Shown in pieces: positions 1 through 13,187 of a DNA stretch of 13,187 nucleotides. Position 1 is the stretch's first letter; every line of letters starts with the position of its first letter. Origin of the DNA: Candidatus Sumerlaeia bacterium (GTDB lineage Bacteria; Sumerlaeota; Sumerlaeia; SLMS01); assembly GCA_038208905.1 (NCBI GenBank), contig JBBQYG010000114.1, positions 1 through 13,187 of the forward strand, read 5' to 3'. Below the pieces are notes generated by a model. That model did not search any database. It was not told the DNA's origin and saw nothing but the letters and a program-made list of their open reading frames with translations. The position numbers were made by a program, and so were the translations under genes.

Positions 1-189
1 GGCTGCTGCGGTGCGGCCATGGAGGACGCGGGGACCGATTCCATCGGGGAACCTTCACTTTTGGGTAGGTTCCTCTCCCTATTGCCCAATCGTCAATGCT
101 TGTCGCCACTCGTTTTCACTTGCCATTCTTCCTGTTTCGCATGAAGCAAGGGGGCAGAAGGATATCCGTCCCCCACCACGGAGCGAGCG

Positions 190-738
190 ATGGCCACCCC
201 AGCCCACGTCATGATCGCGATCAGCGGCGTTTTCCTCGTCGCTTGGTACGGCACCAAGCGGTTCGACCGGCGGCGCGGGGCAATGCCCCACCTCGGCATG
301 GAGGATCCCCTCTCCGACGGATACTGCCACGCTGCCACCGCCGCTCTGGGCGCGGAACTGCGTGAAGATCCGGTCCATGAATTCCCCGGAGGCACAGCAC
401 TCTGTCGCGATTGCGGGATTGCTTACCCGGCGGGTGTGCTCTACTGCGAATGTGGCGGAGAGACCGCCGAGCAGGAAGACCCCGATGAGCCCCTTGCTGG
501 CGACGAGACCATCACCGCGCCACCGGCCGAACTGGTCTGCGTCCACGTGGCCGACAGCGCGTGGAAGGCCACCCTTCTCAAGACCCTCCTCGCCACCCAC
601 GACATCCCCTGCGCCACCGGCGGGAATGCGGGATCGGGGCCCTACCAGTTCTCCTACGGCCCCCTCGCCGAAGTCCGCATCCTCGTCCACCTTCAACACG
701 AGCGGGAAGCGCGTGCGCTGATCGGGCGATGCGTGTGA
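190..738 (+). CDS. Membrane-anchored protein with zinc ribbon and C-terminal DUF2007-like (putative signal-transducing, PII-like) domain, 182 aa
   Basis: GGAG at 180-183, 6 nt before ATG 190. N-terminal hydrophobic segment VMIAISGVFLVAWYG followed by basic KRFDRRR. C72xxC75...C86xC88 (CRDC-x10-CEC). The C-terminus LVCVHVADSAWKATLLKTLLATHDIPC...GPLAEVRILVHLQHEREARALI follows the DUF2007 pattern. Confidence 0.7.
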   Translation: MATPAHVMIAISGVFLVAWYGTKRFDRRRGAMPHLGMEDPLSDGYCHAATAALGAELREDPVHEFPGGTALCRDCGIAYPAGVLYCECGGETAEQEDPDEPLAGDETITAPPAELVCVHVADSAWKATLLKTLLATHDIPCATGGNAGSGPYQFSYGPLAEVRILVHLQHEREARALIGRCV

Positions 739-904
739 AACTGGAAGTCCCTCGATTCCGTAGGGCCACGCCACAGTAGCACGGGTATGCTGCCGGTTCG
801 CGACCAGCTATCGGATTCCACGATGGCTTGCGGCCCCTCCGGCATGGGCGTGACCCATCATGCTATGGGGCTGTTCGCATCCTCGCTCCTCGATTGCGTA
901 TTGC

Positions 905-954
905 CCCCGGTCAATATCACCGTTGTCCTTACCCGAATCCTTTTTTGACCGGGG
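905..954. repeat. Perfect 10-bp inverted repeat with 30-nt spacer upstream of the radical SAM-like gene
   Basis: CCCCGGTCAA (905-914) is the reverse complement of TTGACCGGGG (945-954). Confidence 0.75.
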
Positions 955-986
955 CCTAATCCCAGCGATCCGCGGATAGCCATCCC

Positions 987-2867
987 ATGAGCGTTAACGC
1001 CGCCGTCGTCCTGTTGCAGGAGTCCCCCGAAATCGATCCGCGCGAGTGGATCGAGGCCGGGCAGGCGCTCGCCTTCCTCAAGGAGGCGGGACTCAAGGCA
1101 TCGGGCCACCTCGTGCGGACGGCGCGCCAGCGCGACCAGCTCGCGGCCCAGCTCCGGCACGATTCGCCCCGGGTGATCTGCGTCGCCGTGGGGCGGCACC
1201 AGGCCGCGAGCGCGTCGGCGTTCCTCAACGCGATGCGCGGGCTTCCCGCCACGAACTACGTGGTGATCGCCGGGAGCTATGGCACCCTCCTCAGCCACGA
1301 GTTCACGCCCCACGACGCCGTTCAGGCCGTGCTCCTTGGCGAGTGGGTCGAGGCGCTGGCGGAATTCACGCTCTCCGTGGTGAAGCAGGGCGAGCCAGGC
1401 GCCGTGACCGGCGCGTATATGCGCGGCTATCGCGGCTGGTTCATGGGCGACCGCCGCACCCACAATCCCGATCTGGGGAAATGGCCGGAGCCCCTGCTCG
1501 ACAACCTACGGCCACTTGACTTGATCCGCCTGCGTGGCGGCGTGATGCCGATCCTCGCAAGCCGTGGCTTCCCTTTCCAGACGCTCTTCTCTCCGGAGCC
1601 AATACTCCGCGAATTGCAGCAAAGCGACTTCTATTATCATGTCCGCCCACCCGCGGGCATCGTGGAGGAGGCCCAGCACCGCGTGAGCGAGTTCGGCGTC
1701 GTCTCTTTCGACTTCGTCGATTCGATCTTTCCGTGGCCCGACACGTGGACGCAGGAATTTGCGGACCTGTGGCGGACGAAGGTCGGCCTTCCCTTCTCCA
1801 TCCGCAGCGCCGCGGAATACGTCACGCCGGAACGCGTCTCGCTTCTCCGCGCGGCTGGTCTGGCGCGCGTCGAGTTCCGCCTCGAGGGCGGCAGCGAGAA
1901 AGTCCGCCAACGCCACAGTGATCTGAATCAGACCAACGCGCGCGTGGTCGAGGCGATCCGCCTTCTCCGCAGCAAAGGCATTGAGACCTCCCTCAAGCTC
2001 TTGATTTCGCTTCCGCTGGAGACGCCGGAGCAACTCCGGCAAAGCATCGAGCTGGCCCGCCTCGCCGAAGCCAGTGCAACGGACGGACTCATTCATCACC
2101 CATGGCCAGAGAGCCCGTATTGGGAGGAGACGCTCCGCGCGATGGCGGGGGAGGACGTCGTGACACGGCGTTCCACGACGCCTACTCCGACGCCGCCGAG
2201 TCACTCGTCCGCGGACGCTCCGCGCATCACGCAGGACGCTCTCGCGGCTCAACGCAGTATTCTGGCGATCGACTCGCTCAACAGATCCAAGCGCGTCCCA
2301 AAGTTCCCCGGCGCATCGCTCGATGGATTGGCGGAGTTCCCCGCCTCCACGCTGCGCTCGCCCCTCGAGGGCGCGGCGCGCATCGACCGATTTCACGCGC
2401 CCTCGGGCAGCCACGACGTCATCGCTCTCCGCGTGCCGTCGGAGCTCTGTTGGGAGATCCAGTTCCCCGATGACCCTGCCATCGAATTCGGCATACTGCT
2501 GAAGGCGGCGCTCCCCGGCGAGCGGACGCGCCTTCCCGTTTCCTTCTCGATCCGCGCGTCGCAGAACAGGCGTAGCTTCCGAGTCTTCCAGAAGATCCTC
2601 ACCCAGGCGCTCGATCCCGACAGCCGCCGATGGCACTGGTTCCGCATTCCACTTAGCGGCGTTCGCGCGGGAACAGGGACCCTGATCATCGAGAACCTCG
2701 TGATTGGGGAGAAAGCCGGCGACGTGCCCGCCGATGGCGAATTGTGGGCGGGCTGGAGCCACGTCGTCGTAGCCACCATGGATCAACTCCAAGCCGCCGC
2801 AAAGGAGCGCGCCGACAAGCGATTCGAGCATCCCGCCGGCCACGGCGAAGGCGTCCTGGGAGAGTAG
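987..2867 (+). CDS. Cobalamin-binding-domain radical SAM family homologue lacking the CxxxCxxC motif, with C-terminal beta-sandwich domain, 626 aa
   Basis: Colinear motifs of B12-binding radical SAM proteins: ALAFLKEAG, PRVICV, VVIAGSYGT (GGxHxT position), AVLLGEW (GEGE position), DLGKWPEP (DLDxLPxP), ILASRGFPFQTLFS (SRGCPxxCxFC position), RPPAGIVEE, FDFVDSIF, LLRAAGLARVEFRLEGGSEKVR, ISLPLETPEQLRQSIELAR. The ORF is uninterrupted with GC-rich codon usage. Confidence 0.85.
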   Translation: MSVNAAVVLLQESPEIDPREWIEAGQALAFLKEAGLKASGHLVRTARQRDQLAAQLRHDSPRVICVAVGRHQAASASAFLNAMRGLPATNYVVIAGSYGTLLSHEFTPHDAVQAVLLGEWVEALAEFTLSVVKQGEPGAVTGAYMRGYRGWFMGDRRTHNPDLGKWPEPLLDNLRPLDLIRLRGGVMPILASRGFPFQTLFSPEPILRELQQSDFYYHVRPPAGIVEEAQHRVSEFGVVSFDFVDSIFPWPDTWTQEFADLWRTKVGLPFSIRSAAEYVTPERVSLLRAAGLARVEFRLEGGSEKVRQRHSDLNQTNARVVEAIRLLRSKGIETSLKLLISLPLETPEQLRQSIELARLAEASATDGLIHHPWPESPYWEETLRAMAGEDVVTRRSTTPTPTPPSHSSADAPRITQDALAAQRSILAIDSLNRSKRVPKFPGASLDGLAEFPASTLRSPLEGAARIDRFHAPSGSHDVIALRVPSELCWEIQFPDDPAIEFGILLKAALPGERTRLPVSFSIRASQNRRSFRVFQKILTQALDPDSRRWHWFRIPLSGVRAGTGTLIIENLVIGEKAGDVPADGELWAGWSHVVVATMDQLQAAAKERADKRFEHPAGHGEGVLGE

Positions 2868-2895
2868 GGCACGCTGGGAACGGAAGGGAGAAATA

Positions 2896-2925
2896 GAAGT
2901 GCCCCCGCGCGGGCGGGGGCCCTTC
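2896..2925 (-). terminator. Putative intrinsic terminator between convergent genes (possibly bidirectional)
   Basis: Stem GCCCCCGC (2901-2908)/GCGGGGGC (2913-2920) with a 4-nt loop, extended past one mismatch by GAAG/CTTC. On the minus strand the core stem is followed by ACUUCUAUUUCU. It lies between stops at 2867 (+) and 2954 (-). Confidence 0.65.
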
Positions 2926-2953
2926 GCGTTGTCGGTGCTGGTTGATACTGCGA

Positions 2954-5900
2954 TCAGGGCGGAGTCTGGAAGGACTCCACGACGAGGCTTCTCAGCGTGA
3001 GAGTCAGCGAGCCGTCGTTGGTGGACGGCGGGAGCAGGTAGTCGAAGGAGAAGATCAGCGGCGACTGCTCGATCTCCGTGCGGCCCTCGAAGAACAGGTT
3101 ATACGCGGAGGGCTGGATTGACGTCGGCAAAATCGTCGATGGACCCGTGGATTCGATGTTCATGTAGGCGCTATAGTTCAGGGAACCATCGTTCATTCGC
3201 AGGCGGAACGCGGGCAGGAGCGAAGCCGTCTGATTCGACGCCGACGAACCAACGGTGAAAGTGGCGCGGTACAGGCGATCGCTCGCCAGCTTCACGGCAC
3301 CATCAACCACCCCGGAGTCCTGAAAGTTGTCGGGCGAGTGCCAGAATCCGAAGTAGGTCGAAGAGCCACTCGGGCTCGCCGGGCCAACGCGGAGGCCCCC
3401 CGCGGTGAGCGCGGACTGCGGAGCGAGGAAGGGTGATCCCACCCCGGCGAATGCCCAGCCCTGCTGGTTTCCGCCAAAGGTCAGCACCTTCTCCGTGCGC
3501 AGGCCGGTCAGGCTGGACTGAGCGATCGCATCAACCGTCACGCGGTCCAGCGAGAGCGTCGCGATCGCCCGATCCGTCGGGTCGAAGTTCAGCAACTCGA
3601 AGAACAGCTTGAAGCGCGTGCTCGAAATCGGCAGTTGGAAATACGTGCGGTAGTTCTTGTTCGCTTGCAGCGGCGCAACGCCGGGCTCGGTGACGGAGCT
3701 GACCACCACCACGTCGGATTGCTCAAAGGTCTCCGTGGACGCACGGAGCCGAAAGCTCGGGACCGCCGTCGCGAATTCGGGCGTCGTGTCGCTGCTGACC
3801 GTAAAGAGCGCGCGGTACAGCGTTGCGGGCCCGTTCGTGCCGGAGAGCGGGCGATCACCAGACCGCTCCCACGGCCCGGCCACATGGACCGGGGACTCCC
3901 AGAATCCGTAGGTGTTGGTGTTCTCGGTCGAGGTAAGCTGGAGGGCGCCGCCTTCGAAGACATTCACCGGGGGGATGAAGGAATTCGGGAAGGAGCCGAA
4001 ATTCCAGCCTTCGGCGGTCTCGGTGAAGGCGAAGGACTGGCGACTGAGCGGCGCCGGTGTCCCCGTGGGCTCCGGCGTCGGTGTCGGTGTCGGTGTGGTC
4101 GTGGGGGTCTCGATGCCGCCGAGCTGCGCGGCCTCCAGCAACGCGGCATATCCGTCGATCATGCCGAAGCCGGAGACGCCGTCGAACCCGGGGGCCGCGC
4201 GGAAACCAGTCACGTCGATCGCCGTGCGCTTGAGGATGTCGTCGATCTGGGCCGGCGTCAGCTTTGTCTCGTTCCCCGATGTAACGTCCATGATCAGCGC
4301 CGCGATCGCCGCCGCGTTGGGAGCCGCCGCCGATGTGCCAAAGAAGTTGGGAAACTCGTCGGGGACGTTCTCGTATCCCTCGAGGTAACTAGGCAGGCTG
4401 TCTCGACCGAAGAAGGACGTGTTGTTGCCCTGCACCGCGCTCAAATCCGGAAGGTACTTGACCCTGTTCTCGAACTGCCCCGCGCGGTTGAAATAGATCG
4501 AGACGATCCCGCCCAGCGACGAGAAAGCTTCCGGATCGATGTTCTCCGTCGGCTCGAACGCCGGATTGTAGTTTGGCGACTCCCACCAGGGGATCGCGCC
4601 AACCGCTGTCACGCCGATGCCGATCGGATGGCCAAAGATCGCGTTCGATGGCGCCAGCTTTTCGCTGGCGCTGTAAACCTGCGAAAGATCGGTAATGCCC
4701 GAAAAGGGCATTTGAATCACGAATTCGAGGGGAATCGAGGTGTTCTGGGGGATGAATTCCTTGTTGCCAAAGAAGTGATCGATGGCAAGGAAACCACCCG
4801 GGGAAACGATTGCTTCCACCGGATCGCCGTTGGGTCCTGCAAGGCCGCCCTGGGAATCGGTGGACGCCGCGATGATCGTGGAGGTCAGGCTCGCCTCGGA
4901 ATAGACGTACATATCCAGATCGATCTCGGCCCCCTGACTGCCGGGTATCGAATCGCCGGGCTGGTTCCACTTGAGGAAAATCGTAACTCCCGCGGGGATG
5001 GGAAGGAAAGCCGTGCCATTGGGCCAGCGGTGTAGGTCGAAGCCGCGCGTCGGGCGGGACTCCTCGCTGACAAGCGGGGCGATATCCTGGTAACGCTGAC
5101 GGAATGTTGAGGAGCCATCATTTCCTGCGGCCGAGAAGAACGGAATTCCCTTCTTCACTACTTCCTCCGCCGCGATCGTAATCAGATCCGCCTGGTAAAC
5201 TGGCTGGGCTAAATAGCGCACGTCGTCCACAATGATCGTGCAATCGGCGCCGCCTTCCACCGCGCTGGCGCCCAGCAGTCGAATCCCATCGGCAAAAACA
5301 GCCTCCCCGCCAAAGGCGGTGTGAAAGGCCATCTGGATTCCCGGCGCGATGTCATAGATCAATTCGCCCATGCCGGCGCCTTCGTCGGAGGGCGGAGTTG
5401 ACTCCACATTTGCGCCGCGCAAATCGCGGAGGAGCTGGACTTCTCTGGGAAGGTCGCCGCTGTCCTGATTTCGCGCATTGCGCAGAATCCCGGCGGTCAC
5501 GCCGAGCCGTGGAGTTGTCAGCGTCGAGCGCACTTCCTCGGTGTTCGCGAACGAATCCGACAACACACCAATCTTCTGCGACCGGCCGTCCACCGGGCGA
5601 CCGCCAACCTGCAGAAGCGGGAGCACCCGGTCCAGACCGTGGGCGCGTGGCGCCTCGCTCGGGGCCGGGGCCTTTGCATTCGTATAGGCGGGGGCGGAGG
5701 GCCGCACCCTTCGCACGCCCGGAAGGGCGGCCAGGTCCAGCACCGCATCCAAGTTCTTCAACTCGAAGTAGGCACGGTCCCAATACTCGGAATGATAGGT
5801 CATTTCGAGGTCTTTGGACTTGAGCGCCTTGATGCCCTTGCCCGAAGCGCCCTTCTCGAAGATGACCTCCACGATGGGGCCGTTGGGGCCCCTGTCGATG

Positions 5901-6133
5901 ACGACGGCGGATAGGCTTTCCTCCGTGCTGATTCCCTTGGTCTTCTGGCGTTCCAGGGCTTCCAGCAGATTCAGCGTCACCACCCCACTGGCATCCGCCG
6001 TGGGGAGGTGAGCCGCCTTGGGGCTGACCGCAAACGCGGGCCCGCCAACCATCAGAAGCATTGCCAACCCCAGACCTCCGGCCCCCGAAAGGGCGGTCAG
6101 CCTCGGGCTCGATGGCGAAAAGCGAAAGATCAT
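2954..6133 (-). CDS. Secreted subtilase-clan serine protease (S8/S53-like, Glu in the His position) with Pro/Thr linker and two tandem C-terminal beta-rich domains, ~1059 aa
   Basis: Start moved from 6268 to ATG at 6133: it gives a signal peptide (MIFRF...GLGLAMLLMVGGPAFA|V), has AAAGG upstream and removes the overlap with the UDG gene. Prodomain-like region (LDLAALPGVRRVRP). Motifs: KIGVLSDS (Asp codon 5555-5557), DEGAGMGELIYDIAPG (Glu 5381-5383), IIVDDV, SAAGND (Asn 5120-5122), FFGTSAAAPNAAAIAAL (Ser 4331-4333), LTPAQIDDILKRTA, SGFGMID. Confidence 0.9.
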   Translation of the reverse strand: MIFRFSPSSPRLTALSGAGGLGLAMLLMVGGPAFAVSPKAAHLPTADASGVVTLNLLEALERQKTKGISTEESLSAVVIDRGPNGPIVEVIFEKGASGKGIKALKSKDLEMTYHSEYWDRAYFELKNLDAVLDLAALPGVRRVRPSAPAYTNAKAPAPSEAPRAHGLDRVLPLLQVGGRPVDGRSQKIGVLSDSFANTEEVRSTLTTPRLGVTAGILRNARNQDSGDLPREVQLLRDLRGANVESTPPSDEGAGMGELIYDIAPGIQMAFHTAFGGEAVFADGIRLLGASAVEGGADCTIIVDDVRYLAQPVYQADLITIAAEEVVKKGIPFFSAAGNDGSSTFRQRYQDIAPLVSEESRPTRGFDLHRWPNGTAFLPIPAGVTIFLKWNQPGDSIPGSQGAEIDLDMYVYSEASLTSTIIAASTDSQGGLAGPNGDPVEAIVSPGGFLAIDHFFGNKEFIPQNTSIPLEFVIQMPFSGITDLSQVYSASEKLAPSNAIFGHPIGIGVTAVGAIPWWESPNYNPAFEPTENIDPEAFSSLGGIVSIYFNRAGQFENRVKYLPDLSAVQGNNTSFFGRDSLPSYLEGYENVPDEFPNFFGTSAAAPNAAAIAALIMDVTSGNETKLTPAQIDDILKRTAIDVTGFRAAPGFDGVSGFGMIDGYAALLEAAQLGGIETPTTTPTPTPTPEPTGTPAPLSRQSFAFTETAEGWNFGSFPNSFIPPVNVFEGGALQLTSTENTNTYGFWESPVHVAGPWERSGDRPLSGTNGPATLYRALFTVSSDTTPEFATAVPSFRLRASTETFEQSDVVVVSSVTEPGVAPLQANKNYRTYFQLPISSTRFKLFFELLNFDPTDRAIATLSLDRVTVDAIAQSSLTGLRTEKVLTFGGNQQGWAFAGVGSPFLAPQSALTAGGLRVGPASPSGSSTYFGFWHSPDNFQDSGVVDGAVKLASDRLYRATFTVGSSASNQTASLLPAFRLRMNDGSLNYSAYMNIESTGPSTILPTSIQPSAYNLFFEGRTEIEQSPLIFSFDYLLPPSTNDGSLTLTLRSLVVESFQTPP
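4073..4102 (-). repeat. Short hexamer tandem repeat encoding the Pro-Thr linker of the protease
   Basis: The plus strand reads CGGCGT CGGTGT CGGTGT CGGTGT GGTCGT, within the segment encoding TPTTTPTPTPTPEPTGTP between the catalytic and C-terminal domains. Confidence 0.8.
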
Positions 6134-6254
6134 ATCCTTGGAACCTTTGCGCAAGGGCGACTGGATGGAGTTCGGCCTGTTACCTTTAGCTGACGGTTCT
6201 ATCGGCCCCCGGAGCGATAGGCTCAAGGGGAACTTCCATCGGCCCAACCGGTTT

Positions 6255-6851
6255 TCACGGGCCATCAAGCGCGGCGCGAAAGGCCACCCTCAACTCAGCT
6301 AGGACATCGCGCTCGAACCAGTTGTTCCGCCGGAGCCACAGGTTATTGCGCGGCGACGGGTGGGGGAGCGGAAACGCCCCCGGCGCGAAATCGCGCCATG
6401 CCCGAACAGTCGCGGTGACGCCTCCGCCAGTTGCGGCGGTTCCAAGGTGATGTGCTTGGGCGTACCTCCCAATCAAGATTCGCAGGCAGACTCGCGGAAG
6501 CTGTGAATAGAGGCCGTCGAGCCAGAGCTCCGCGCACTCCTTTCGGGGAGGGAGATCGCCGCTCTTCCCCCGCCCCGGGTAACACAATCCCATCGGGATG
6601 ATGGCAATTTGCGACTCGTCGTAGAACACTTCGCGGTCAATTCCCAACCATTCCCTCAGGCGGTCGCCCGACGGATCGTTCCATGGAATGCCGGTCTTGT
6701 GAACGCGTGTTCCCGGCGCCTGGCCAACGATCAGCACCCGTGCCGTGGCGGAAGCCCTGAGGACTGGTCTCGGGCCCAGAGGAAGCTCCGCCTCGCAGGC
6801 CCGGCACGCGCGGACGCGGGCAAGGAGTTCCTCCAGCGACTCTGCCGACAC
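6255..6851 (-). CDS. Uracil-DNA glycosylase superfamily protein (family 4/5-like, putative [4Fe-4S] ligands), 198 aa
   Basis: Motif A VLIVGQAPG, PWNDPSGDRLREWLG, MGLCYPG, DLPPRKEC, motif B LPHPSPRN. Cys16, Cys19, Cys90 and Cys106 are spaced as in Fe-S-containing UDGs. The GTG start is 1 nt after the upstream TAG. Confidence 0.92.
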   Translation of the reverse strand: MSAESLEELLARVRACRACEAELPLGPRPVLRASATARVLIVGQAPGTRVHKTGIPWNDPSGDRLREWLGIDREVFYDESQIAIIPMGLCYPGRGKSGDLPPRKECAELWLDGLYSQLPRVCLRILIGRYAQAHHLGTAATGGGVTATVRAWRDFAPGAFPLPHPSPRNNLWLRRNNWFERDVLAELRVAFRAALDGP

Positions 6852-6852
6852 G

Positions 6853-8451
6853 CTATCCCACCGGGGTGGAAAGGAGCTCGATGCTACGTGCCTTGAAGGC
6901 CTGCATGACCCGTCGCGCCTCTGGCGAGGGCGTGGCGCGGAAGATGGCCTGCATCTCCGTCAGTGCCCGGTCGAGCAGGCTGCGCTTTTCATCGGCGCTG
7001 GAAAGCTTCGCGGCCACCGCCAACGCTTCGACGCCCAACAGGCGCACCGTGTCGTCGCCCGTCTGGACGCGCTTCCCCGATTCCGAGCAATACAGGACGA
7101 TCAGATGCCCGGTGGCGGCCATCCCCTCCAGCGCGAGGAGGAACGCCAGTCGCGACCGGACCGCGAGCTCGGTGTGGTCCGGCGGCATCAGCAGCGCCCG
7201 CCGATAGTGGCGGCACGCCTCCCGTCCATTTCCGAGGCTTTCGAGGGCGATTCCCAGAATCAACAGCATCCAGGGCTTCGTGCCGGACCTCCCCTCGTAG
7301 GCGGAAAGATGCGCCACCACCTCCGCGGGCTTCCCCTTGTCCATCAGCCACGCGCCAACTCCGCCCCACAGGATTGCATTCGAGTTGATAGCCGCTCGAT
7401 TGGCGGCGACCCAGCGCGACACGGCCCCCGGCACCAAGAGTTGGCCCGAGTAGGTGGAGAGGAAGCGCGCCATGGCCCGGGGATAGCGCAGGGGTTCGAC
7501 GGAGATAACATTGTAAATCTCGATGACCTGGCCTCGATTGCCGCGCTGGCCGCAGCGTTCAAGCATCTCCAGGGCGTAGCTATCGACCGCGCGGCGCGAC
7601 CGAAGCTGCTCGATCGCAAACTGGTCCGAACCCACCAGCCCCATGTTGTGAAGGCAAATGTCGAGGACCTCGCGCTGAAACTCCTCCGAATCGCCCCGCG
7701 CGTCCGATGCGAGGCGCTGGATGATCAGAAGGGCATCGGGATGGCGTCGACTACGGAATAGTGCATCCGCCGACCGTAGGAGCGTCGCAGGCTTGGATCC
7801 CTCGCCTTGCAGGAACGGCTCGAGGAAGCGGACGGCTTCCTCAGAGTGATTCTGGTCGAGGAGAAACTCCGCGAATCCGCGCGCGGCGTCTTCATCCCCC
7901 GGATTGTTGGCGAGCAGACGCTCATAGGCGCGCCGGGCACGCGGCTCGTCCCTCAGCCGCCTTGCCGCGCGCGCCATCGCGGAAAGGAGAGCACGGTCGT
8001 CCGGAGATTGCGCGAGCCCTGCTTCCGCCAACGCGGCGGCCCCGGCGTTGTCTCCGGTGTCGAGCATCCAATCGACCAAGTTCGCGCGCGCCGAAGTGCT
8101 GCCGGGGTGGCGGGCCAGCGTGGCGCGCGCCTCGGCGATGGCTTCTTCGCGCAGGCCAAGATTCCAGTGGATCCACGCCAACCGCGACCGCGCTTCGGCG
8201 TGGTCCGGATAGTAGCGCGTGTACTCTTCCAGAAGGCGCTGGGCCAGTTTGGCCTCGCCTCCGCTCGCGAGGATTCGAGCCTCCAGATCGAGTGGCTCGT
8301 ACCATCCGGAATCCGCGCGCAGCAGACCTTCCGCGAGCTGGCGCGCCTCGATGCGGTTTCCTGCTTCAAAAAGACTCGACGCGCGGGCAAGCGTCTGAGC
8401 CCGCGTCTCGTGTCCAAGATCAACCGCGCCAACTTCCACCGATACGTCCAT
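6853..8451 (-). CDS. Tetratricopeptide repeat (TPR) protein, ~532 aa
   Basis: Repeated TPR units: YYPDHAEARSRLAWIHWNLGLREEAIAEARATLARHP, GLAQSPDDRALLSAMARA...ARRAYERLLANNPGDEDA, LGIALESLGNGREACRHYRRALLMPPD. ATG at 8451 is preferred over TTG at 8511, which overlaps the kinase end; the start is uncertain. No signal peptide or TM segment seen. Confidence 0.82.
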   Translation of the reverse strand: MDVSVEVGAVDLGHETRAQTLARASSLFEAGNRIEARQLAEGLLRADSGWYEPLDLEARILASGGEAKLAQRLLEEYTRYYPDHAEARSRLAWIHWNLGLREEAIAEARATLARHPGSTSARANLVDWMLDTGDNAGAAALAEAGLAQSPDDRALLSAMARAARRLRDEPRARRAYERLLANNPGDEDAARGFAEFLLDQNHSEEAVRFLEPFLQGEGSKPATLLRSADALFRSRRHPDALLIIQRLASDARGDSEEFQREVLDICLHNMGLVGSDQFAIEQLRSRRAVDSYALEMLERCGQRGNRGQVIEIYNVISVEPLRYPRAMARFLSTYSGQLLVPGAVSRWVAANRAAINSNAILWGGVGAWLMDKGKPAEVVAHLSAYEGRSGTKPWMLLILGIALESLGNGREACRHYRRALLMPPDHTELAVRSRLAFLLALEGMAATGHLIVLYCSESGKRVQTGDDTVRLLGVEALAVAAKLSSADEKRSLLDRALTEMQAIFRATPSPEARRVMQAFKARSIELLSTPVG

Positions 8452-8489
8452 TTTGCCGTGCCGATCTTCGCGATGGGGGTCGGGCCAGG

Positions 8490-11447
8490 CTAATGACAAG
8501 CCTTGGCCCAAACCTGTTCCAGCTCGGCGACACCGGGAACGGGCGCCAGGGTGGTGAGAGTTATTCCCGCCGTGGCGCAGATTTCCGCAAGGGCGTTCAG
8601 ATCATTCTGCCCTTCGAATGCCTCGCCGAGCGCGATATAGGCGCCTACGAGCGTGACAATATCTCCGCGCCACAAGTTGCTGTTTGGGTCCTTGTAGGCG
8701 AGCCGCTCGGCAACCAAGAGCCCGGATTCGTAGGCGCGCTTTGCATCCGCCAGACGACCAGAGGCCGCGCGTGCACGGCCAGCCTGGAGGACGGCCTTCA
8801 GAAGCGTGTGCTGCCAGAGGGCATTGTTGGAATCTCTCGAAGCGAGCGTCTGGGCCTGATCCAGCCCCATGTCGCCTTCCGCCACGGCGCGGGGCAGGTC
8901 ATCCGCCGCCAGATGCAGGGTTGACCGGCGCAGATGGACAGCGGCCAGCAGCCTGAGCCAACGCGGCTGCGATGGCTCCTCCACGCGCCCCCGCTGGGCA
9001 ATGTCGAGGGCCTTGGAGTAAGCCTCATTCGCAAGGACCTGCTCGCCTTCGGATTCGCTCAACTGTCCCGTCCGCATCAGGCTCTCCGCCAAGTCGATGC
9101 GGAAGCCGCCGTCGGAAGGATACTCCTTGGATAGAAACTCGCGGACCTTGAGCTCGCGTTCGAATGTCACCCGCGCCAAGCCGATGTTGCCCTGCCGCAG
9201 GAACGCATCGCCCAGCCAGGAATAGGCGGTCGCCATGTCACCCGTCCAATCCGGGTCGTTCTGCTTCGAGGCCACGAGGCGATCAACGACTTCCACGAGC
9301 TTCTCCTGATCCGCGCCGAGGCCGGAGAGATCATCCTGCGCAAGGAGGAAGCTATTGATCTTGTCCAGATCCTCGCGGGCGATGCTTCCATCGTCGGCCT
9401 CCGGACCAAGTGTCCGGAGGGCCGCCTTCACCGCGGCGGCAAGGGCGCGCGCCAGATTCACTTGTTGGCCCTTGATGTCCCCTTGGTCGGCCAGCACCTG
9501 ACCAATCAGGATATGGCTATAGCCGAGCTGGCTGAGCCATTCCTCGTTGCCGGGCTCCTCCGCCACAATCTCAACGCATGCCTCGTTGAACTGGCGAAGC
9601 AGGTCCAAGGCAAGGCCACTGTCGCCGAGTTGGCGCTGGACGAGGCCAACGGTACGCAAGGCAAGGGCGCGCTGGCGTTTCGTCTCGATAGAAGCCTCGT
9701 CTTCGGGGACGCGATTGTAGTAATCGAGAACGCTCTGGCCGACTTGGAGGAGCGGCTCGAGCTGGGCGCTCGGCTCTAGGCTTTCGCGCAGGTCCGTGAG
9801 CATGAAATTGACGAGGCGGTGGGCGTCGTTGCGCGCCGTCTGCGCCTTGTCGCGCTCCGCCAGCGCGTTGTCGCGCTCCACCATGACCTGCCGGTTGAAC
9901 CAGGTGCCAAGGGCGAGCATTCCCATGAAAAAAATGCCGACGAAGCTGATGGACCAGTGGCGGATCCGTTCGCGCCTCCGTGCGCGGTCCTCCGCCTGGG
10001 AAACCGCGATCAGCAGTTGGTCGCGGATTTCCGAAGGTTCGAGGCTCTCCGCCTGGAGCCTCGCGAGCACCAGATCGTCATTGGCCAGCGCCGCGCGGCA
10101 CCACTGGGTATGGGAGCGCTGGCTCAGCCAGGAGATCGACGGGTTATCGCCCCAGAGCGCCTGGGCGCGGGAGACATGGCCGATACAATGTCCAAAGTCG
10201 CCGTAGGTGGCGCCCTTCTTCTCCAGATCGCGGGCCACCTGATCGGTGATTGTCAGGGATTCGCGGCGGCGGGATGATCCGGAGAGGTAATCCTGGATGA
10301 GATGGAGAAACTCCCCTGCAGTCTGGAGGCGGTCCTTTATATCCGGCTTCATCGCGATCATCGCAAGGTCCACCAACTCGGGTGGCATGTCGCGCCCGGG
10401 AGTGGCCTTTTCCGGTGGCGGCACATCTCCAAGGCTCGCGCGCAGGAACGCTTCGCGCGTGGAGACCGCCTGATGCGGCGGCTTTGCAGTGAGCAGGTAG
10501 TAGAGGATGCCGCCCAGAAGATAGACATCCGTCCACGGGCCGATGCGATTGGGGCGCCGCTCGGTTTGCTCCGGCGCCATGAAGGCGGGAGTTCCCGCGG
10601 GGTTGGAGGCTGAATCCGCCGTGTGGAGGAACTGCAAGTCGATCCGCTGCCCCACGCGCGCCAGCGCCTCCCGGTCGAAGACCATGGAGAGACCCCAGTC
10701 GGCCAGAAGCACCTCGCCGAACTCGCCGACGATCACCTGCGCGGGCTTGAGATCGCGATGCACCACGCCGCGCGAGTGCGCAAACGCCACGGCCTGGGTC
10801 ACCTGCACCAGGATCGGGATGTGGCGAGCAAGGAACTCCGCGGGATCCGTCGCGTTGAACTCGTCTTCGATCAACTTGTTCCACGGATCGCCGCGCACAT
10901 ACTTCATTGCAATCAGCGGCGAGCCATCCTCGTCCACGCCCAAGTCGTGTACAGGGACAATGTTTGGGTGGTCGAGGTTGGCGGTGGTGACGGCTTCCTG
11001 CCGGAACTCGGCTTTCATCACCTTGGACATCAGGCTCCGGTCTTCCTCGTCACCCTGCAGGATGTCGCGGCGCAGGCGCTTGACGGCGACGATTCGGTTG
11101 AGGCTGACCTGAACGGCCTCCCAGACCTCGCCGAAGCCGCCCTTGCCCACAATCTTGCGGAGGCGGAACGTCGAGCCACCCTGGCCGACCTCCTCTTCCT
11201 CCACGCCATCCTCCATCCCCTTTTCAAGGCGAAGTGCCCATCGCGACATCTGGATGTTGTCGGAAGTTGGGAGCTGGGAGGCGTTCAGGCGCATCGAGTC
11301 GGAGACGCCGGGCGCGATTCGCAGGTGAGTTTGGGAGGGATCGTAGGAAAGGAGCGAATCCTCCGGGAGGTCCGACGGGAAATCGGGCCCCGCCATGGTC
11401 TCCTGCTCCGATTCTTCGCCCGCATCCGGCTTCCGCATTATTTCCAC
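8490..11447 (-). CDS. Hanks-type Ser/Thr protein kinase with single TM helix and C-terminal TPR region, 985 aa
   Basis: GKGGFGEV, VAVK, EFRQEA, LDHPNIVPVHDLG, HRDLKPAQ, DWG, GTPAFMAPEQ, TDVYLLGGILYYLLT, DR. TM segment WSISFVGIFFMGMLALGTWF (aa 498-517), coiled-coil ERDNALAERDKAQTARNDA, then TPR-like repeats (e.g. DMATAYSWLGDAFLRQGNIGLARVTFERELKVRE). Start is GTG 11447 or ATG 11438. Confidence 0.93.
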   Translation of the reverse strand: MEIMRKPDAGEESEQETMAGPDFPSDLPEDSLLSYDPSQTHLRIAPGVSDSMRLNASQLPTSDNIQMSRWALRLEKGMEDGVEEEEVGQGGSTFRLRKIVGKGGFGEVWEAVQVSLNRIVAVKRLRRDILQGDEEDRSLMSKVMKAEFRQEAVTTANLDHPNIVPVHDLGVDEDGSPLIAMKYVRGDPWNKLIEDEFNATDPAEFLARHIPILVQVTQAVAFAHSRGVVHRDLKPAQVIVGEFGEVLLADWGLSMVFDREALARVGQRIDLQFLHTADSASNPAGTPAFMAPEQTERRPNRIGPWTDVYLLGGILYYLLTAKPPHQAVSTREAFLRASLGDVPPPEKATPGRDMPPELVDLAMIAMKPDIKDRLQTAGEFLHLIQDYLSGSSRRRESLTITDQVARDLEKKGATYGDFGHCIGHVSRAQALWGDNPSISWLSQRSHTQWCRAALANDDLVLARLQAESLEPSEIRDQLLIAVSQAEDRARRRERIRHWSISFVGIFFMGMLALGTWFNRQVMVERDNALAERDKAQTARNDAHRLVNFMLTDLRESLEPSAQLEPLLQVGQSVLDYYNRVPEDEASIETKRQRALALRTVGLVQRQLGDSGLALDLLRQFNEACVEIVAEEPGNEEWLSQLGYSHILIGQVLADQGDIKGQQVNLARALAAAVKAALRTLGPEADDGSIAREDLDKINSFLLAQDDLSGLGADQEKLVEVVDRLVASKQNDPDWTGDMATAYSWLGDAFLRQGNIGLARVTFERELKVREFLSKEYPSDGGFRIDLAESLMRTGQLSESEGEQVLANEAYSKALDIAQRGRVEEPSQPRWLRLLAAVHLRRSTLHLAADDLPRAVAEGDMGLDQAQTLASRDSNNALWQHTLLKAVLQAGRARAASGRLADAKRAYESGLLVAERLAYKDPNSNLWRGDIVTLVGAYIALGEAFEGQNDLNALAEICATAGITLTTLAPVPGVAELEQVWAKACH

Positions 11448-11477
11448 GCCATTCAGACTCGAGATGCCATTTTCGGG

Positions 11478-11507
11478 ATAGTATTCACCCCACCTTCAAA
11501 CACACAA
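11478..11507 (-). promoter_or_regulatory. Candidate sigma70-type promoter for the kinase-TPR-UDG genes
   Basis: The minus strand reads TTGTGT (11507-11502), 18 nt, TACTAT (11483-11478), about 30 nt upstream of the kinase start, in a locally AT-rich stretch. Confidence 0.4.
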
Positions 11508-11554
11508 TGGAATCGTGCGGTCCCCGGGGTGACTCCCTGAAAATGGCCTGCAAC

Positions 11555-12115
11555 CTACCTGAATTTGATCAGGCGCCTCCATAGGGGTAGTCGGCTCGAC
11601 TCCTCGCGGAACACAACCGACGCCCCCACCGAGGTCCGGACATCCTCGATCGTGATAAACACCCCCGGCGCATAGCGATGAATAGCCTGTACCGTGAGCT
11701 TGACCTTCTTCCTCGGCACAACGAGGAAGCAGAGCTCCGCCTCCCCTGACGCCCCCGTGGCGGCCACTTGGGTAACCGTCAGGCGCCGCTTGCGCAGAAA
11801 AGGCACAATGGGGCGGCTGGCGTCCACGTTCACTATCCGAATCATCTGGTCCCCAAGGGCGACCGTCTCCTCGATCAGCATCCCCACCAGGGTCCCCGCA
11901 GCAAATCCCGCACCGTAGGCAAGGACCGTAACCAAGCTCTGGGAGATGTTGGAGATCACGGCCGAAACCGCGAATATCCAAATAATGACCTCGAAGAACC
12001 CCAAGGTTGCGGCCATCAGCTTCATTCCGCGCATGATCAGAATGACACGCATGGTCCCGATCGAGACGTCTCCGATGCGGGCGAAGAAAATAAGAATCGG
12101 CAGGTACCACTCCAC
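11555..12115 (-). CDS. DUF5698/DUF2179 (UPF0316/YebE-like) membrane protein with C-terminal PII-like domain, ~186 aa
   Basis: Signature LIFFARIGDVSIGTMRVILIMRG...AATLGFFEVIIWIFAVSAVI...VLAYGAGFAAGTLVGMLIEETVALG, then LTVTQVAATGASG...VVPRKKV...IHRYAPGVFITIEDVR. Start reassigned to GTG 12115, which has GAGAGGGA 8 nt upstream; the 28 extra residues from ATG 12199 look non-coding. Confidence 0.9.
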   Translation of the reverse strand: MEWYLPILIFFARIGDVSIGTMRVILIMRGMKLMAATLGFFEVIIWIFAVSAVISNISQSLVTVLAYGAGFAAGTLVGMLIEETVALGDQMIRIVNVDASRPIVPFLRKRRLTVTQVAATGASGEAELCFLVVPRKKVKLTVQAIHRYAPGVFITIEDVRTSVGASVVFREESSRLPLWRRLIKFR

Positions 12116-12200
12116 AGGCTGCGTCCCTCTCGAACGGCGATTATGTCGATGGCGCCACGGGAGGCCATCGCGATTTGGATCGTCAAGCCCATTGCCCATG

Positions 12201-12219
12201 TCGGATTCGTCGAATCCGA
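12201..12219. promoter_or_regulatory. Perfect 9-1-9 palindrome in the divergent intergenic region (candidate operator)
   Basis: TCGGATTCG-T-CGAATCCGA, further flanked by CCA (12196-12198)/TGG (12222-12224). The palindrome is certain; the operator role is inference. Confidence 0.45.
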
Positions 12220-12284
12220 ATTGGTGAAAATGCTGCGAAGCTCGGGAACCTTCGCGGGGAAGTCGCTGTCGTTACCCACAGGAA

Positions 12285-12380
12285 GCCCGGCTGGGCGTGG
12301 ATTCCCCCCTTGACGCATCGCGGAGAGGGCTGAATCTTGGCTGAAAGGCGTTGAGTCTCAACGAATCGACCCAGCCGGGC
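12285..12380. repeat. 11-bp perfect inverted repeat enclosing nested palindromes upstream of the prepilin gene
   Basis: GCCCGGCTGGG (12285-12295)/CCCAGCCGGGC (12370-12380). Inside are GATTC (12300-12304)/GAATC (12363-12367), CGTTGAG-T-CTCAACG (12349-12363) and a TTGACG hexamer (12310-12315). Confidence 0.7.
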
Positions 12381-12413
12381 GCCACAATTTGGGGAGAAGA
12401 GGTCGGCCCAGCC

Positions 12414-13148
12414 ATGTCGAGCAAGAGCGGGCGCGCGGGAAAGCGCGCTGAAGTCAGTTGGAAGCAGTCCTTGTCGCGCTCCCGCCCAACCGGCGGAACG
12501 CGGGCATTCACCCTGATCGAGTTGCTCGTGGTGGTGGCCATCATCTCCATTCTCGCCGGCATCGCCCTTCCCAATTTCCTGGAGGCACAGACGCGCTCCA
12601 AAGTGGCGCGGGTGCGGGCCGATCAGCGGACTCTGGCCACGGCGCTGGAGTCCTACTTCATCGACAACAACCGCTATCCCCCGCGGACCAAGGTTCCCGC
12701 CGCCGCCGGCATCCTCGGCCTTCCCGATACTCTCTTGCGCGTCGAGCAGATGAGCGTGATAACCACCCCGATCAGCTACCTCACCTCGCTTCCCTCCGAT
12801 GTTTTCGAGAATCGGGTTGCCGCCCCAAACAACCTCATCGATTACTACGATCCGCTGACAGTGCAGCACATGCGTCGTTCCGCACTCGGGTCCAACAACG
12901 TGGACCTCGACTATGCTGCCGAGAGTGGTGGTGCGAAGGTCTTCGACTTCGGGTGGATGCTGCTGTCTGTCGGGCCGGACACGGTGCTCGGAAATTCCGG
13001 AAACCAAGGGAACTATCCGGTTCGGAGTCCCAGTATCAGTTGGAACGACGAATACGACCCCACGAACGGGACGGTCACGGGCGGAAACGTGACGCGATTC
13101 TTCAAGAACGGAGCGACCGCGACGGATGCGTTCCGAACCAAGCCCTAA
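12414..13148 (+). CDS. Prepilin-type N-terminal cleavage/methylation domain protein (GspG/type IV pilin-like), ~244 aa
   Basis: Basic leader, then RA|FTLIELLVVVAIISILAGIALPNFLEAQTRSKVARVRADQRTLATALESYFIDNNRYP with Glu at +5. C-terminal WMLLSVGPD (GspG-like LxSxGPD) and YDPTNGTVTGGNV. ATG 12414 is preceded by GGGGAGAAGAGG (12391-12402). Confidence 0.92.
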   Translation: MSSKSGRAGKRAEVSWKQSLSRSRPTGGTRAFTLIELLVVVAIISILAGIALPNFLEAQTRSKVARVRADQRTLATALESYFIDNNRYPPRTKVPAAAGILGLPDTLLRVEQMSVITTPISYLTSLPSDVFENRVAAPNNLIDYYDPLTVQHMRRSALGSNNVDLDYAAESGGAKVFDFGWMLLSVGPDTVLGNSGNQGNYPVRSPSISWNDEYDPTNGTVTGGNVTRFFKNGATATDAFRTKP

Positions 13149-13158
13149 GGAGCACGGC

Positions 13159-13187
13159 ATGTCCTGCCTGAAAGCCCTGAAGCAAAC
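13159..13187 (+). CDS. Probable 5' end of the next gene (MSCLKALKQ...), truncated by the window edge
   Basis: AAGGAG (13147-13152) overlaps the prepilin stop codon, 6 nt before ATG 13159. The frame is open to the window end. Product unknown. Confidence 0.55.

Follow-up and report, generated by a model that had tools for sequence, protein, structure and literature searches.

Radical SAM (S-adenosylmethionine) enzymes are defined by a [4Fe-4S] cluster that is held on a CxxxCxxC motif, and without a site-differentiated cluster on this motif SAM is not cleaved reductively. Among the class B members, which combine the radical SAM barrel with an N-terminal Rossmann-type domain, the tryptophan 2-C-methyltransferase TsrM (PDB 6wte, 6wtf) is a cobalamin-dependent enzyme that works without reductive SAM cleavage, while AprD4 (PDB 6fd2) is a radical SAM 1,2-diol dehydratase of apramycin biosynthesis. 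In the portions of the literature that a full-text search returned, no description of a conserved class B homologue without a cluster turned up. Here we analyze a stretch of 13,187 nucleotides from a Candidatus Sumerlaeia bacterium (contig JBBQYG010000114.1, positions 1 to 13,187 of the forward strand; hereafter the window), which contains a gene for a 626-aa protein, P0001, that is homologous to class B radical SAM enzymes and possesses none of the three cluster cysteines. The gene and the parts of its product are the following:

987–2867, plus strand: whole open reading frame (ORF) of P0001, 626 aa, derived from a class B radical SAM enzyme by loss of the cluster cysteines
987–1391, plus strand: N-terminal Rossmann-like domain (aa 1–135), counterpart of the class B cobalamin-binding domain, with alternating strands and helices in the model
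1542–2186, plus strand: radical SAM partial TIM-barrel core (aa 186–400), recognized by PF04055 and Foldseek
1560–1592, plus strand: degenerate cluster loop, S192-R-G-F195-P-F-Q-T199-L-F-S202, where relatives have SRG-C-PFx-C-xF-C
about 2193–2246, plus strand: Pro/Thr-rich insertion TTPTPTPPSHSS (about aa 403–420), present in P0001 only and a gap in all aligned orthologues
2214–2294, plus strand: long connecting helix (aa 410–436) in the AlphaFold2 secondary structure
2349–2777, plus strand: beta-jelly-roll domain (aa 455–597) with a fold like that of carbohydrate-binding modules (CBM); pLDDT (predicted local distance difference test) of 91.4 when modeled separately
2604–2642, plus strand: motif QALDPDSRRWHWF (aa 540–552), near-invariant in the Cys-less clade

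A class B radical SAM fold without cluster ligands

The start codon is supported by the orthologues, whose alignment with P0001 begins at M1. At the other end, the initial annotation of this DNA had let the gene stop at 2300, which is too short since the ORF runs to 2867. Its reading of the former cluster loop is borne out by translation: the codons of nt 1560–1592 are AGC CGT GGC TTC CCT TTC CAG ACG CTC TTC TCT, with TTC, ACG and TCT at the three former Cys positions. The drifted motifs that it quoted (IAGSYGT, LGEWVEAL, RLEGGS and SLPLET) all occur in P0001 as written, and the protein indeed contains only two cysteines, one in RVICV and one in SELCW. The columns of neither of these are conserved in the Cys-less clade to which P0001 belongs. 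The best Cys column of this clade is occupied in 12 of 26 distinct Cys-less sequences, and the median number of cysteines is 4.5 as compared to 11 in the Cys-bearing rows. The lack of any conserved Cys column together with this low Cys count argues that the cluster has not been relocated, just as the initial annotation had concluded from the single protein.

The profile PF04055 (Radical_SAM) matches P0001 with 39.5 bits (cut-off 29.5) over aa 265–357. As this match is confined to profile positions 75–166, the half of the profile that contains the Cys loop stays unmatched. The genome to which the window belongs (93.9% complete) contains 22 PF04055 matches, 21 of which start at profile positions 1–5, and only that of P0001 at position 74. 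PF02310 (B12-binding) yields no match in P0001 at E <= 0.01; the same genome possesses seven PF02310 matches, P0001 not being among them. The three Cys-bearing sister proteins lack this signature as well, but more distant relatives such as P0029 and P0031 possess it. Weak matches far below threshold are obtained with the NCBIfam models BzaD, ladderane-type, PhpK, BchE and HpnJ, all of which are class B models. A sequence profile of the family matches AprD4, MgmA (9ccb), TokK, TsrM, OxsB and CysS, with AprD4 being the best (E 3.2e-34).

Structure prediction with AlphaFold2 using a 39-row alignment resulted in a model of P0001 with a pLDDT of 92.6 and a predicted TM-score (pTM) of 0.91. The Rossmann-type fold comprises aa 5–135 of the model and aligns to TsrM, OxsB, TokK and CysS; in the profile alignment of the N-terminal region, aa 5–160 pair with TsrM 5–169 and aa 9–204 with OxsB. 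The barrel core is modeled with a pLDDT above 90, and comparison of the first two domains to the PDB using Foldseek retrieves TsrM (E 1.9e-19, TM-scores 0.48/0.56), MgmA, AprD4, CysS, OxsB and TokK. The insertion that follows the barrel is disordered, with pLDDT below 50 at aa 403–407. Hence, the structure prediction, which the initial annotation had suggested for confirming both folds, delivers the Rossmann domain and the radical SAM barrel with high confidence. Of the two profile searches proposed alongside, the one with PF04055 succeeded and the one with PF02310 failed, although the Rossmann fold is present.

Compared to the features of class B enzymes, P0001 possesses the radical SAM barrel core (PF04055 score, model confidence and Foldseek matches) and the N-terminal Rossmann-type fold, and it lacks the PF02310 signature and the CxxxCxxC triad, which is replaced by F195, T199 and S202. 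P0001 is thus a true homologue of class B radical SAM enzymes, with the cluster ligands gone and the fold intact. Since the defining CxxxCxxC is missing, P0001 is not to be filed as a functional member of the radical SAM superfamily, and with its clear homology to an enzyme family and the absence of residues essential for the cofactor it has the hallmarks of a pseudoenzyme.

The C-terminal domain adopts a beta-jelly-roll in the model. The best Foldseek match of this domain is TmCBM61 (2xom; E 5.7e-6, TM-scores 0.57/0.62), and the best match in VIA-align is CBM51 (2vmi; Z 13.0, root-mean-square deviation 2.8 Å over 133 residues), with reelin, MAM and ephrin-receptor domains and other CBM families scoring close behind. 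The domain thus shows the jelly-roll fold of CBM51/61/6/4/22 modules, at an identity to its matches of 6–14%; no Pfam family, and hence no CBM family, matches it at E <= 0.01, and a comparison of the C-terminal part to the ESM Atlas at 0.90 returned unnamed clusters only. The motif QALDPDSRRWHWF in this domain is largely common to the Cys-bearing sister, where it takes the form Q[AS]LDPDSR.WH, and not to the wider family. D543, D545 and H550 of the jelly roll are conserved.

One ancestral loss of the cluster ligands

The initial annotation had rested on one protein and asked whether the loss of the cysteines was clade-wide, which it is. A word-indexed search yielded eight full-length orthologues of 36–50% identity, all eight without Cys at the three positions, and 19 proteins at E <= 1e-30 came out of an exhaustive HMMER search through 1.84 billion representatives. 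When 75 genomes of the phylum were searched, 23 contained a match at E <= 1e-20. Among 27 homologous ORFs from the genomes of the phylum, 18 carry CxxxCxxC and nine are without the triad (L001, L004–L008, L010, L011 and L013). The Cys-less loci occur in two genome families of the order, namely in seven of 11 genomes of the window's own family f1 (its own genome counted) and in both genomes of f4, while the full-length relatives in f3 (L009, L012) and f2 (L014) read ASRGCPF[SR]C[QSA]FCH. Taken over all distinct sequences, Cys is missing from all three positions in each of the 26 clade members and is present at all three in each of the 31 Cys-bearing relatives.

For the phylogeny, a careful IQ-TREE analysis (42 rows, 685 columns, LG+C20+F+G4 with posterior mean site frequencies (PMSF)) was run on an alignment from which the motif columns had been removed. 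The 22 Cys-less rows form one clade in this tree (ultrafast bootstrap 99, SH-aLRT (Shimodaira–Hasegawa-like approximate likelihood ratio test) 95). Its sister consists of three Cys-bearing Candidatus Sumerlaeota proteins (P0018, P0022 and P0023; 100/99), the union of both is supported at 100/99, and the Cys-bearing P0025 is the next branch outward. The result is matched by a quick tree of 60 rows, in which the Cys-less clade comprises 27 rows and has an SH-aLRT of 96. As all outgroups possess the triad, the direction of change is loss. All three [4Fe-4S] ligands were therefore lost in one ancestral, ancient event in the clade of the window.

In the search of the 75 genomes, none was found to combine the Cys-less with the Cys-bearing form of the subfamily; where a genome has a second match (G041, G008), this is a generic class B protein (L026, L027). 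Together with the common neighbor GlnE of the Cys-bearing locus L033 and the Cys-less locus L034, this argues that the Cys-less genes are orthologous descendants and not extra paralogues.

Could the missing motif nevertheless reflect a decaying pseudogene or an error of assembly or sequencing? In favor of this stand only the missing motif itself and the absence of the gene from some related genomes. The region 1560–1592 is found without any difference or indel in contigs from three other public runs (X1, X2 and X3); in the contig of a further run, X4, positions 1554–1588 are uncovered. A metagenome contig that is 99% identical (L041) retains the same frame with six synonymous and four non-synonymous changes. 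All nine Cys-less loci for which DNA is available contain intact frames of about 600 aa at pairwise identities of 26–49%, so that the unbroken frame remarked on in the initial annotation extends to all of them, and the Cys-less state recurs in 26 distinct sequences with intact frames at 26–50% identity. The high-confidence AlphaFold2 model likewise speaks against decay. The initial annotation had envisaged that the closest orthologues might keep CxxxCxxC with P0001 drifting away from them; instead, the loss is shared by the clade. We thus assign practically no probability to decay or artefact, and this reading is refuted.

The clade is not uniformly conserved. Between the 26 distinct Cys-less sequences the mean pairwise identity is 33% in the N-terminal domain, 42% in the radical SAM barrel and 47% in the C-terminal domain, the corresponding values for the Cys-bearing sister being 47%, 44% and 46%. 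The N-terminal domain is hence the least and the C-terminal domain the most conserved folded domain of the clade. The barrel of the Cys-less clade is also no more distant from the outgroups, with an identity to these of 26% versus 28% for the sister. The loop that replaced the cluster motif is conserved in turn, with F195 in 88% and F197 in 96% of the 26 clade members and a consensus of ASRGFPFx[TS]LF[ST].

In the barrel, several residues that are conserved in active relatives were lost from the clade together with the cysteines: R218 and G298 (both 100% in the 31 Cys-bearing rows), R313 (87%), C292 (81%) and P362 (90%). Others are kept, namely D245 and E345, which are invariant in the Cys-less clade, G302, which like P343, W373 and P374 is invariant or nearly so in a 10-row alignment, and R307, which is invariant in the 39-row alignment. 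The kept barrel residues sit just after the barrel strands of the model, on what we take, from the general fold, to be the side at which SAM and substrate are bound in radical SAM enzymes. Judging from the one ancient loss, the 26 intact sequences across families f1 and f4 and the conservation of the domains, the gene appears to be retained under selection and not to be decaying.

The loss in this clade is not the only one in the wider family. Among the best 150 representatives, 16 are without CxxxCxxC; 11 of these belong to the clade of the window, one (P0028) is a fragment whose sequence begins beyond the motif, and four are other full-length proteins of the wider 600–700-aa family (P0033, P0078, P0053 and P0089) that represent three further lineages. 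P0053 and P0089 are 50% identical and both Cys-less, and all four are also without G298. The fewest state changes on the careful tree number four in all 200 bootstrap trees, and the well-supported branches alone force at least three; P0033 and P0078 are long branches and their placement is thus unsure.

The database labels of the relatives are generic or apparently automatic mislabels such as 'BchE' and 'YgiQ'. Three Cys-bearing relatives of 690–744 aa (P0025, P0027 and P0031) possess a C-terminal tail of about 80 aa with coiled-coil-type Pfam matches (ATG16 in all three, Tropomyosin in P0027 only), and this tail is absent from the clade of the window.

Candidate roles and genomic context

From sequence comparison and predicted structures we infer the present function of P0001 as follows. 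With moderate confidence, we regard it as a pseudoenzyme kept by selection, which descends directly from a Candidatus Sumerlaeota class B enzyme of about 600–700 aa and would bind a ligand or partner without radical chemistry. One ancestral event removed all three [4Fe-4S] ligands, other residues that are invariant in Cys-bearing relatives were lost too, and the three-domain fold was kept. The hydrophobic F-P-F-x-[TS]-L-F loop may fill the place of the cluster, and the protein would serve the ancestral ligand or partner as a non-radical binding protein, whether as sensor, carrier or scaffold. Since the barrel face and the jelly roll are conserved and the motif of the latter is common to the Cys-bearing sister, P0001 most likely still binds that ligand or partner. 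The central proposal of the initial annotation, an intact homologue that lost its cluster ligands and was retained for a non-radical role, is supported by the single origin of the clade-wide loss, the intact frames, the fold and the conservation of the barrel face and the C-terminal domain.

Several observations weigh against this reading. The conserved barrel residues could be purely structural. The gene is absent from four of the ten other genomes of its own family (75–91% complete), which implies that it is dispensable in some relatives. When dN/dS was calculated according to NG86 for the nine Cys-less and two Cys-bearing loci, dS lay between 0.9 and 3.8 in 28 of the 36 Cys-less pairs and had no defined value in the remaining eight; with dS saturated, the resulting omega of 0.22–0.87 (0.45 for one Cys-bearing pair) is uninformative. 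Hence, of the selection check proposed in the initial annotation, the clade-wide loss held in all 26 sequences, and a dN/dS well below 1 did not emerge because of the saturated dS. Binding of cobalamin is doubtful given the 33% identity of the N-terminal domain and the missing PF02310 match, and the CBM-like match of the C-terminal domain represents a very common ligand-binding fold, which by itself points to no ligand and no function. A comparison of neighborhoods based on greedy ORF calls in the window and 12 further loci revealed no gene family common to the Cys-less neighborhoods (seven loci: the window, L028–L032 and L034), so that a conserved neighbor to which a pathway could be assigned is missing. 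Finally, none of the runs that carry the stretch is recorded as RNA.

Instead of a binding protein, P0001 might still be an enzyme of a non-radical kind, for example a TsrM-like cobalamin/SAM polar methyltransferase, or exert a different activity via acidic residues that its barrel has conserved. In favor of this, no structure matches better than TsrM, the clade has an invariant D245 and E345 and also keeps an acidic residue at position 300, conservation of the barrel equals that in the Cys-bearing sister, and the seven PF02310 matches of the genome suggest that cobalamin is probably available. However, TsrM itself keeps its cluster and the top profile match AprD4 is cobalamin-independent, and in P0001 the domain that would bind cobalamin is the least conserved folded domain and escapes PF02310. 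With the additional loss of R218, G298 and R313, which are invariant or nearly so in active relatives, we consider such an enzyme unlikely. Less likely again is that P0001 forms the inactive partner of an active radical SAM paralogue, as its regulator or scaffold, an idea which the initial annotation had brought up and which gained no support. Pairs of pseudoenzymes and enzymes are a common pattern, and 21 other radical SAM matches are present in the genome, two class B paralogues among them. Yet no radical SAM gene was found in the window or adjoining any orthologue compared, and no conserved neighbor suggests a partner. The two paralogues (L002 and L003), the only other class B matches of the genome, are generic proteins of about 470–500 aa with the triad present, lie on other contigs and share 22–29% identity with P0001 over the barrel only, and the lack of any genome among the 75 with both subfamily forms points in the same direction.

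A retention of radical chemistry, either by an iron-sulfur or other metal centre bound via non-Cys ligands or by a cluster provided in trans, appears highly improbable. Non-canonical ligation of the cluster is known from a few radical SAM-related enzymes, and H550, D543 and D545 are conserved, though these reside in the jelly roll. Against it, F, T/S and S/T now stand at the three former Cys positions and bind metals poorly, and no His, Asp or Glu is conserved in the loop and no Cys anywhere in the clade.

Beyond the pseudoenzyme reading of P0001 itself, the repeated losses may be taken together in a bolder proposal, which we put forward tentatively and consider rather unlikely. The 600–700-aa jelly-roll family might have a second, cluster-independent function on the barrel face and jelly roll, so that loss of the Fe-S cluster is tolerated and occurred independently at least three to four times (clade of the window, P0033, P0078, and P0053/P0089). 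On this view, the Sumerlaeota clade would represent either a ligand sensor without a cluster or an enzyme that, like TsrM, handles cobalamin and SAM in a non-radical manner. If true, this would constitute a type of protein that is not described for the radical SAM superfamily.

The other genes of the window show no link to P0001. They comprise the following:

79–774, minus strand: longest upstream ORF, 231 aa, no family and no relatives, probably a shadow of 190–738 on the plus strand
190–738, plus strand: ORF with a weak DUF2007 match (E 1.2e-4, 22.6 bits, below cut-off), probably a real gene
2954–6268, minus strand: 1104-aa protein of which only aa 607–699 match Peptidase_S8 subtilase (E 1.8e-7), with a weak mycosin-like match
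6255–6851, minus strand: UDG-superfamily protein, 198 aa, first in a run of four minus-strand genes
6853–8511, minus strand: tetratricopeptide repeat (TPR) protein, 552 aa, in the same run
8490–11447, minus strand: Ser/Thr kinase with C-terminal TPRs, 985 aa, its frame overlapping the TPR gene by 22 nt
11555–12199, minus strand: DUF5698/DUF2179 protein, in the run of four
12351–13148, plus strand: pilin-like ORF with the prepilin-type N-terminal methylation motif PF07963 (E 1.1e-6)

The ORF 190–738 was found only in near-identical contigs. The pilin-like ORF is likely a real gene since the longer overlying ORF 12183–13160 on the minus strand has no match. The ORFs just upstream of the gene are unrelated to each other in three loci. 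A scan for promoters and terminators found no promoter-like site and a single terminator-like site, on the minus strand at 2920–2901, which is within chance expectation.

Two neighbors recur at loci of relatives and are kept as leads only, since kin are not independent. GlnE (glutamine synthetase adenylyltransferase) lies downstream of the gene in three loci, directly so in L033 and L034. A gene for a CDP-alcohol phosphatidyltransferase (PF01066) is located immediately upstream of the Cys-bearing gene, in the same orientation, in four f14 genomes and at L036 (f2), and it was not found beside Cys-less orthologues. The positions are:

L033, 4963–8049, minus strand: GlnE at a locus of the Cys-bearing sister
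L034, 1046–4054, minus strand: GlnE at a Cys-less locus
L039, 10855–14043, minus strand: GlnE at a locus of a distant lineage
L037, 1838–2587, plus strand: CDP-alcohol phosphatidyltransferase
L038, 9089–9727, minus strand: CDP-alcohol phosphatidyltransferase
L036, 9034–9738, minus strand: CDP-alcohol phosphatidyltransferase (also at L017 and L022)

At L034 the frame of GlnE overlaps the Cys-less gene by 4 nt. The phosphatidyltransferase offers a lead to a lipid- or head-group-related substrate of the parent enzyme.

Comparison with the Cys-bearing sister and described proteins

In annotation, the gene of P0001 would be counted as a radical SAM enzyme, which it is almost certainly not. What makes this case unusually clean is a natural before/after pair: a Cys-bearing sister of the same architecture persists in the same phylum, the loss can be placed on a single branch, and the descendants remain intact across family-level divergence. 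The pair allows one to ask what a radical SAM scaffold does without its cluster and what the parent enzyme acts on, and the fact that the wider family lost the triad repeatedly and independently suggests that the scaffold has a value apart from radical chemistry.

The sister (P0018, P0022 and P0023; loci L009 and L012) has the same length and three-domain architecture as P0001 at 31–35% identity over the full length, and its annotation goes no further than 'radical SAM protein' or 'B12-binding domain-containing radical SAM protein'. Both share the jelly-roll motif, and the sister locus L033 possesses the same GlnE neighbor as the Cys-less L034. The difference lies in the barrel, where the sister keeps ASRGCPFSCxFCH, R218, G298 and R313, all of which the clade of the window has lost.

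Among characterized proteins, TsrM comes closest in structure to the Rossmann domain and the barrel (about 430 columns). It is 17% identical to P0001 and, unlike the latter, has the Cys triad and the cluster; since the match ends before aa 455, the C-terminal domain of TsrM is not a jelly roll. AprD4 is the best profile match to the barrel (positions 158–428) and is also recovered by Foldseek (E 1.1e-15). It differs from P0001 in being an active enzyme of 457 aa with CxxxCxxC (GCPYPCRFYC in the alignment) and without a jelly roll. The C-terminal domain of P0001 in turn shares the beta-jelly-roll fold with CBM51 and CBM61 at 12–14% identity. Unlike in these modules, it is fused to a radical SAM barrel on a cytoplasmic-looking protein, and any binding of sugars would be putative.

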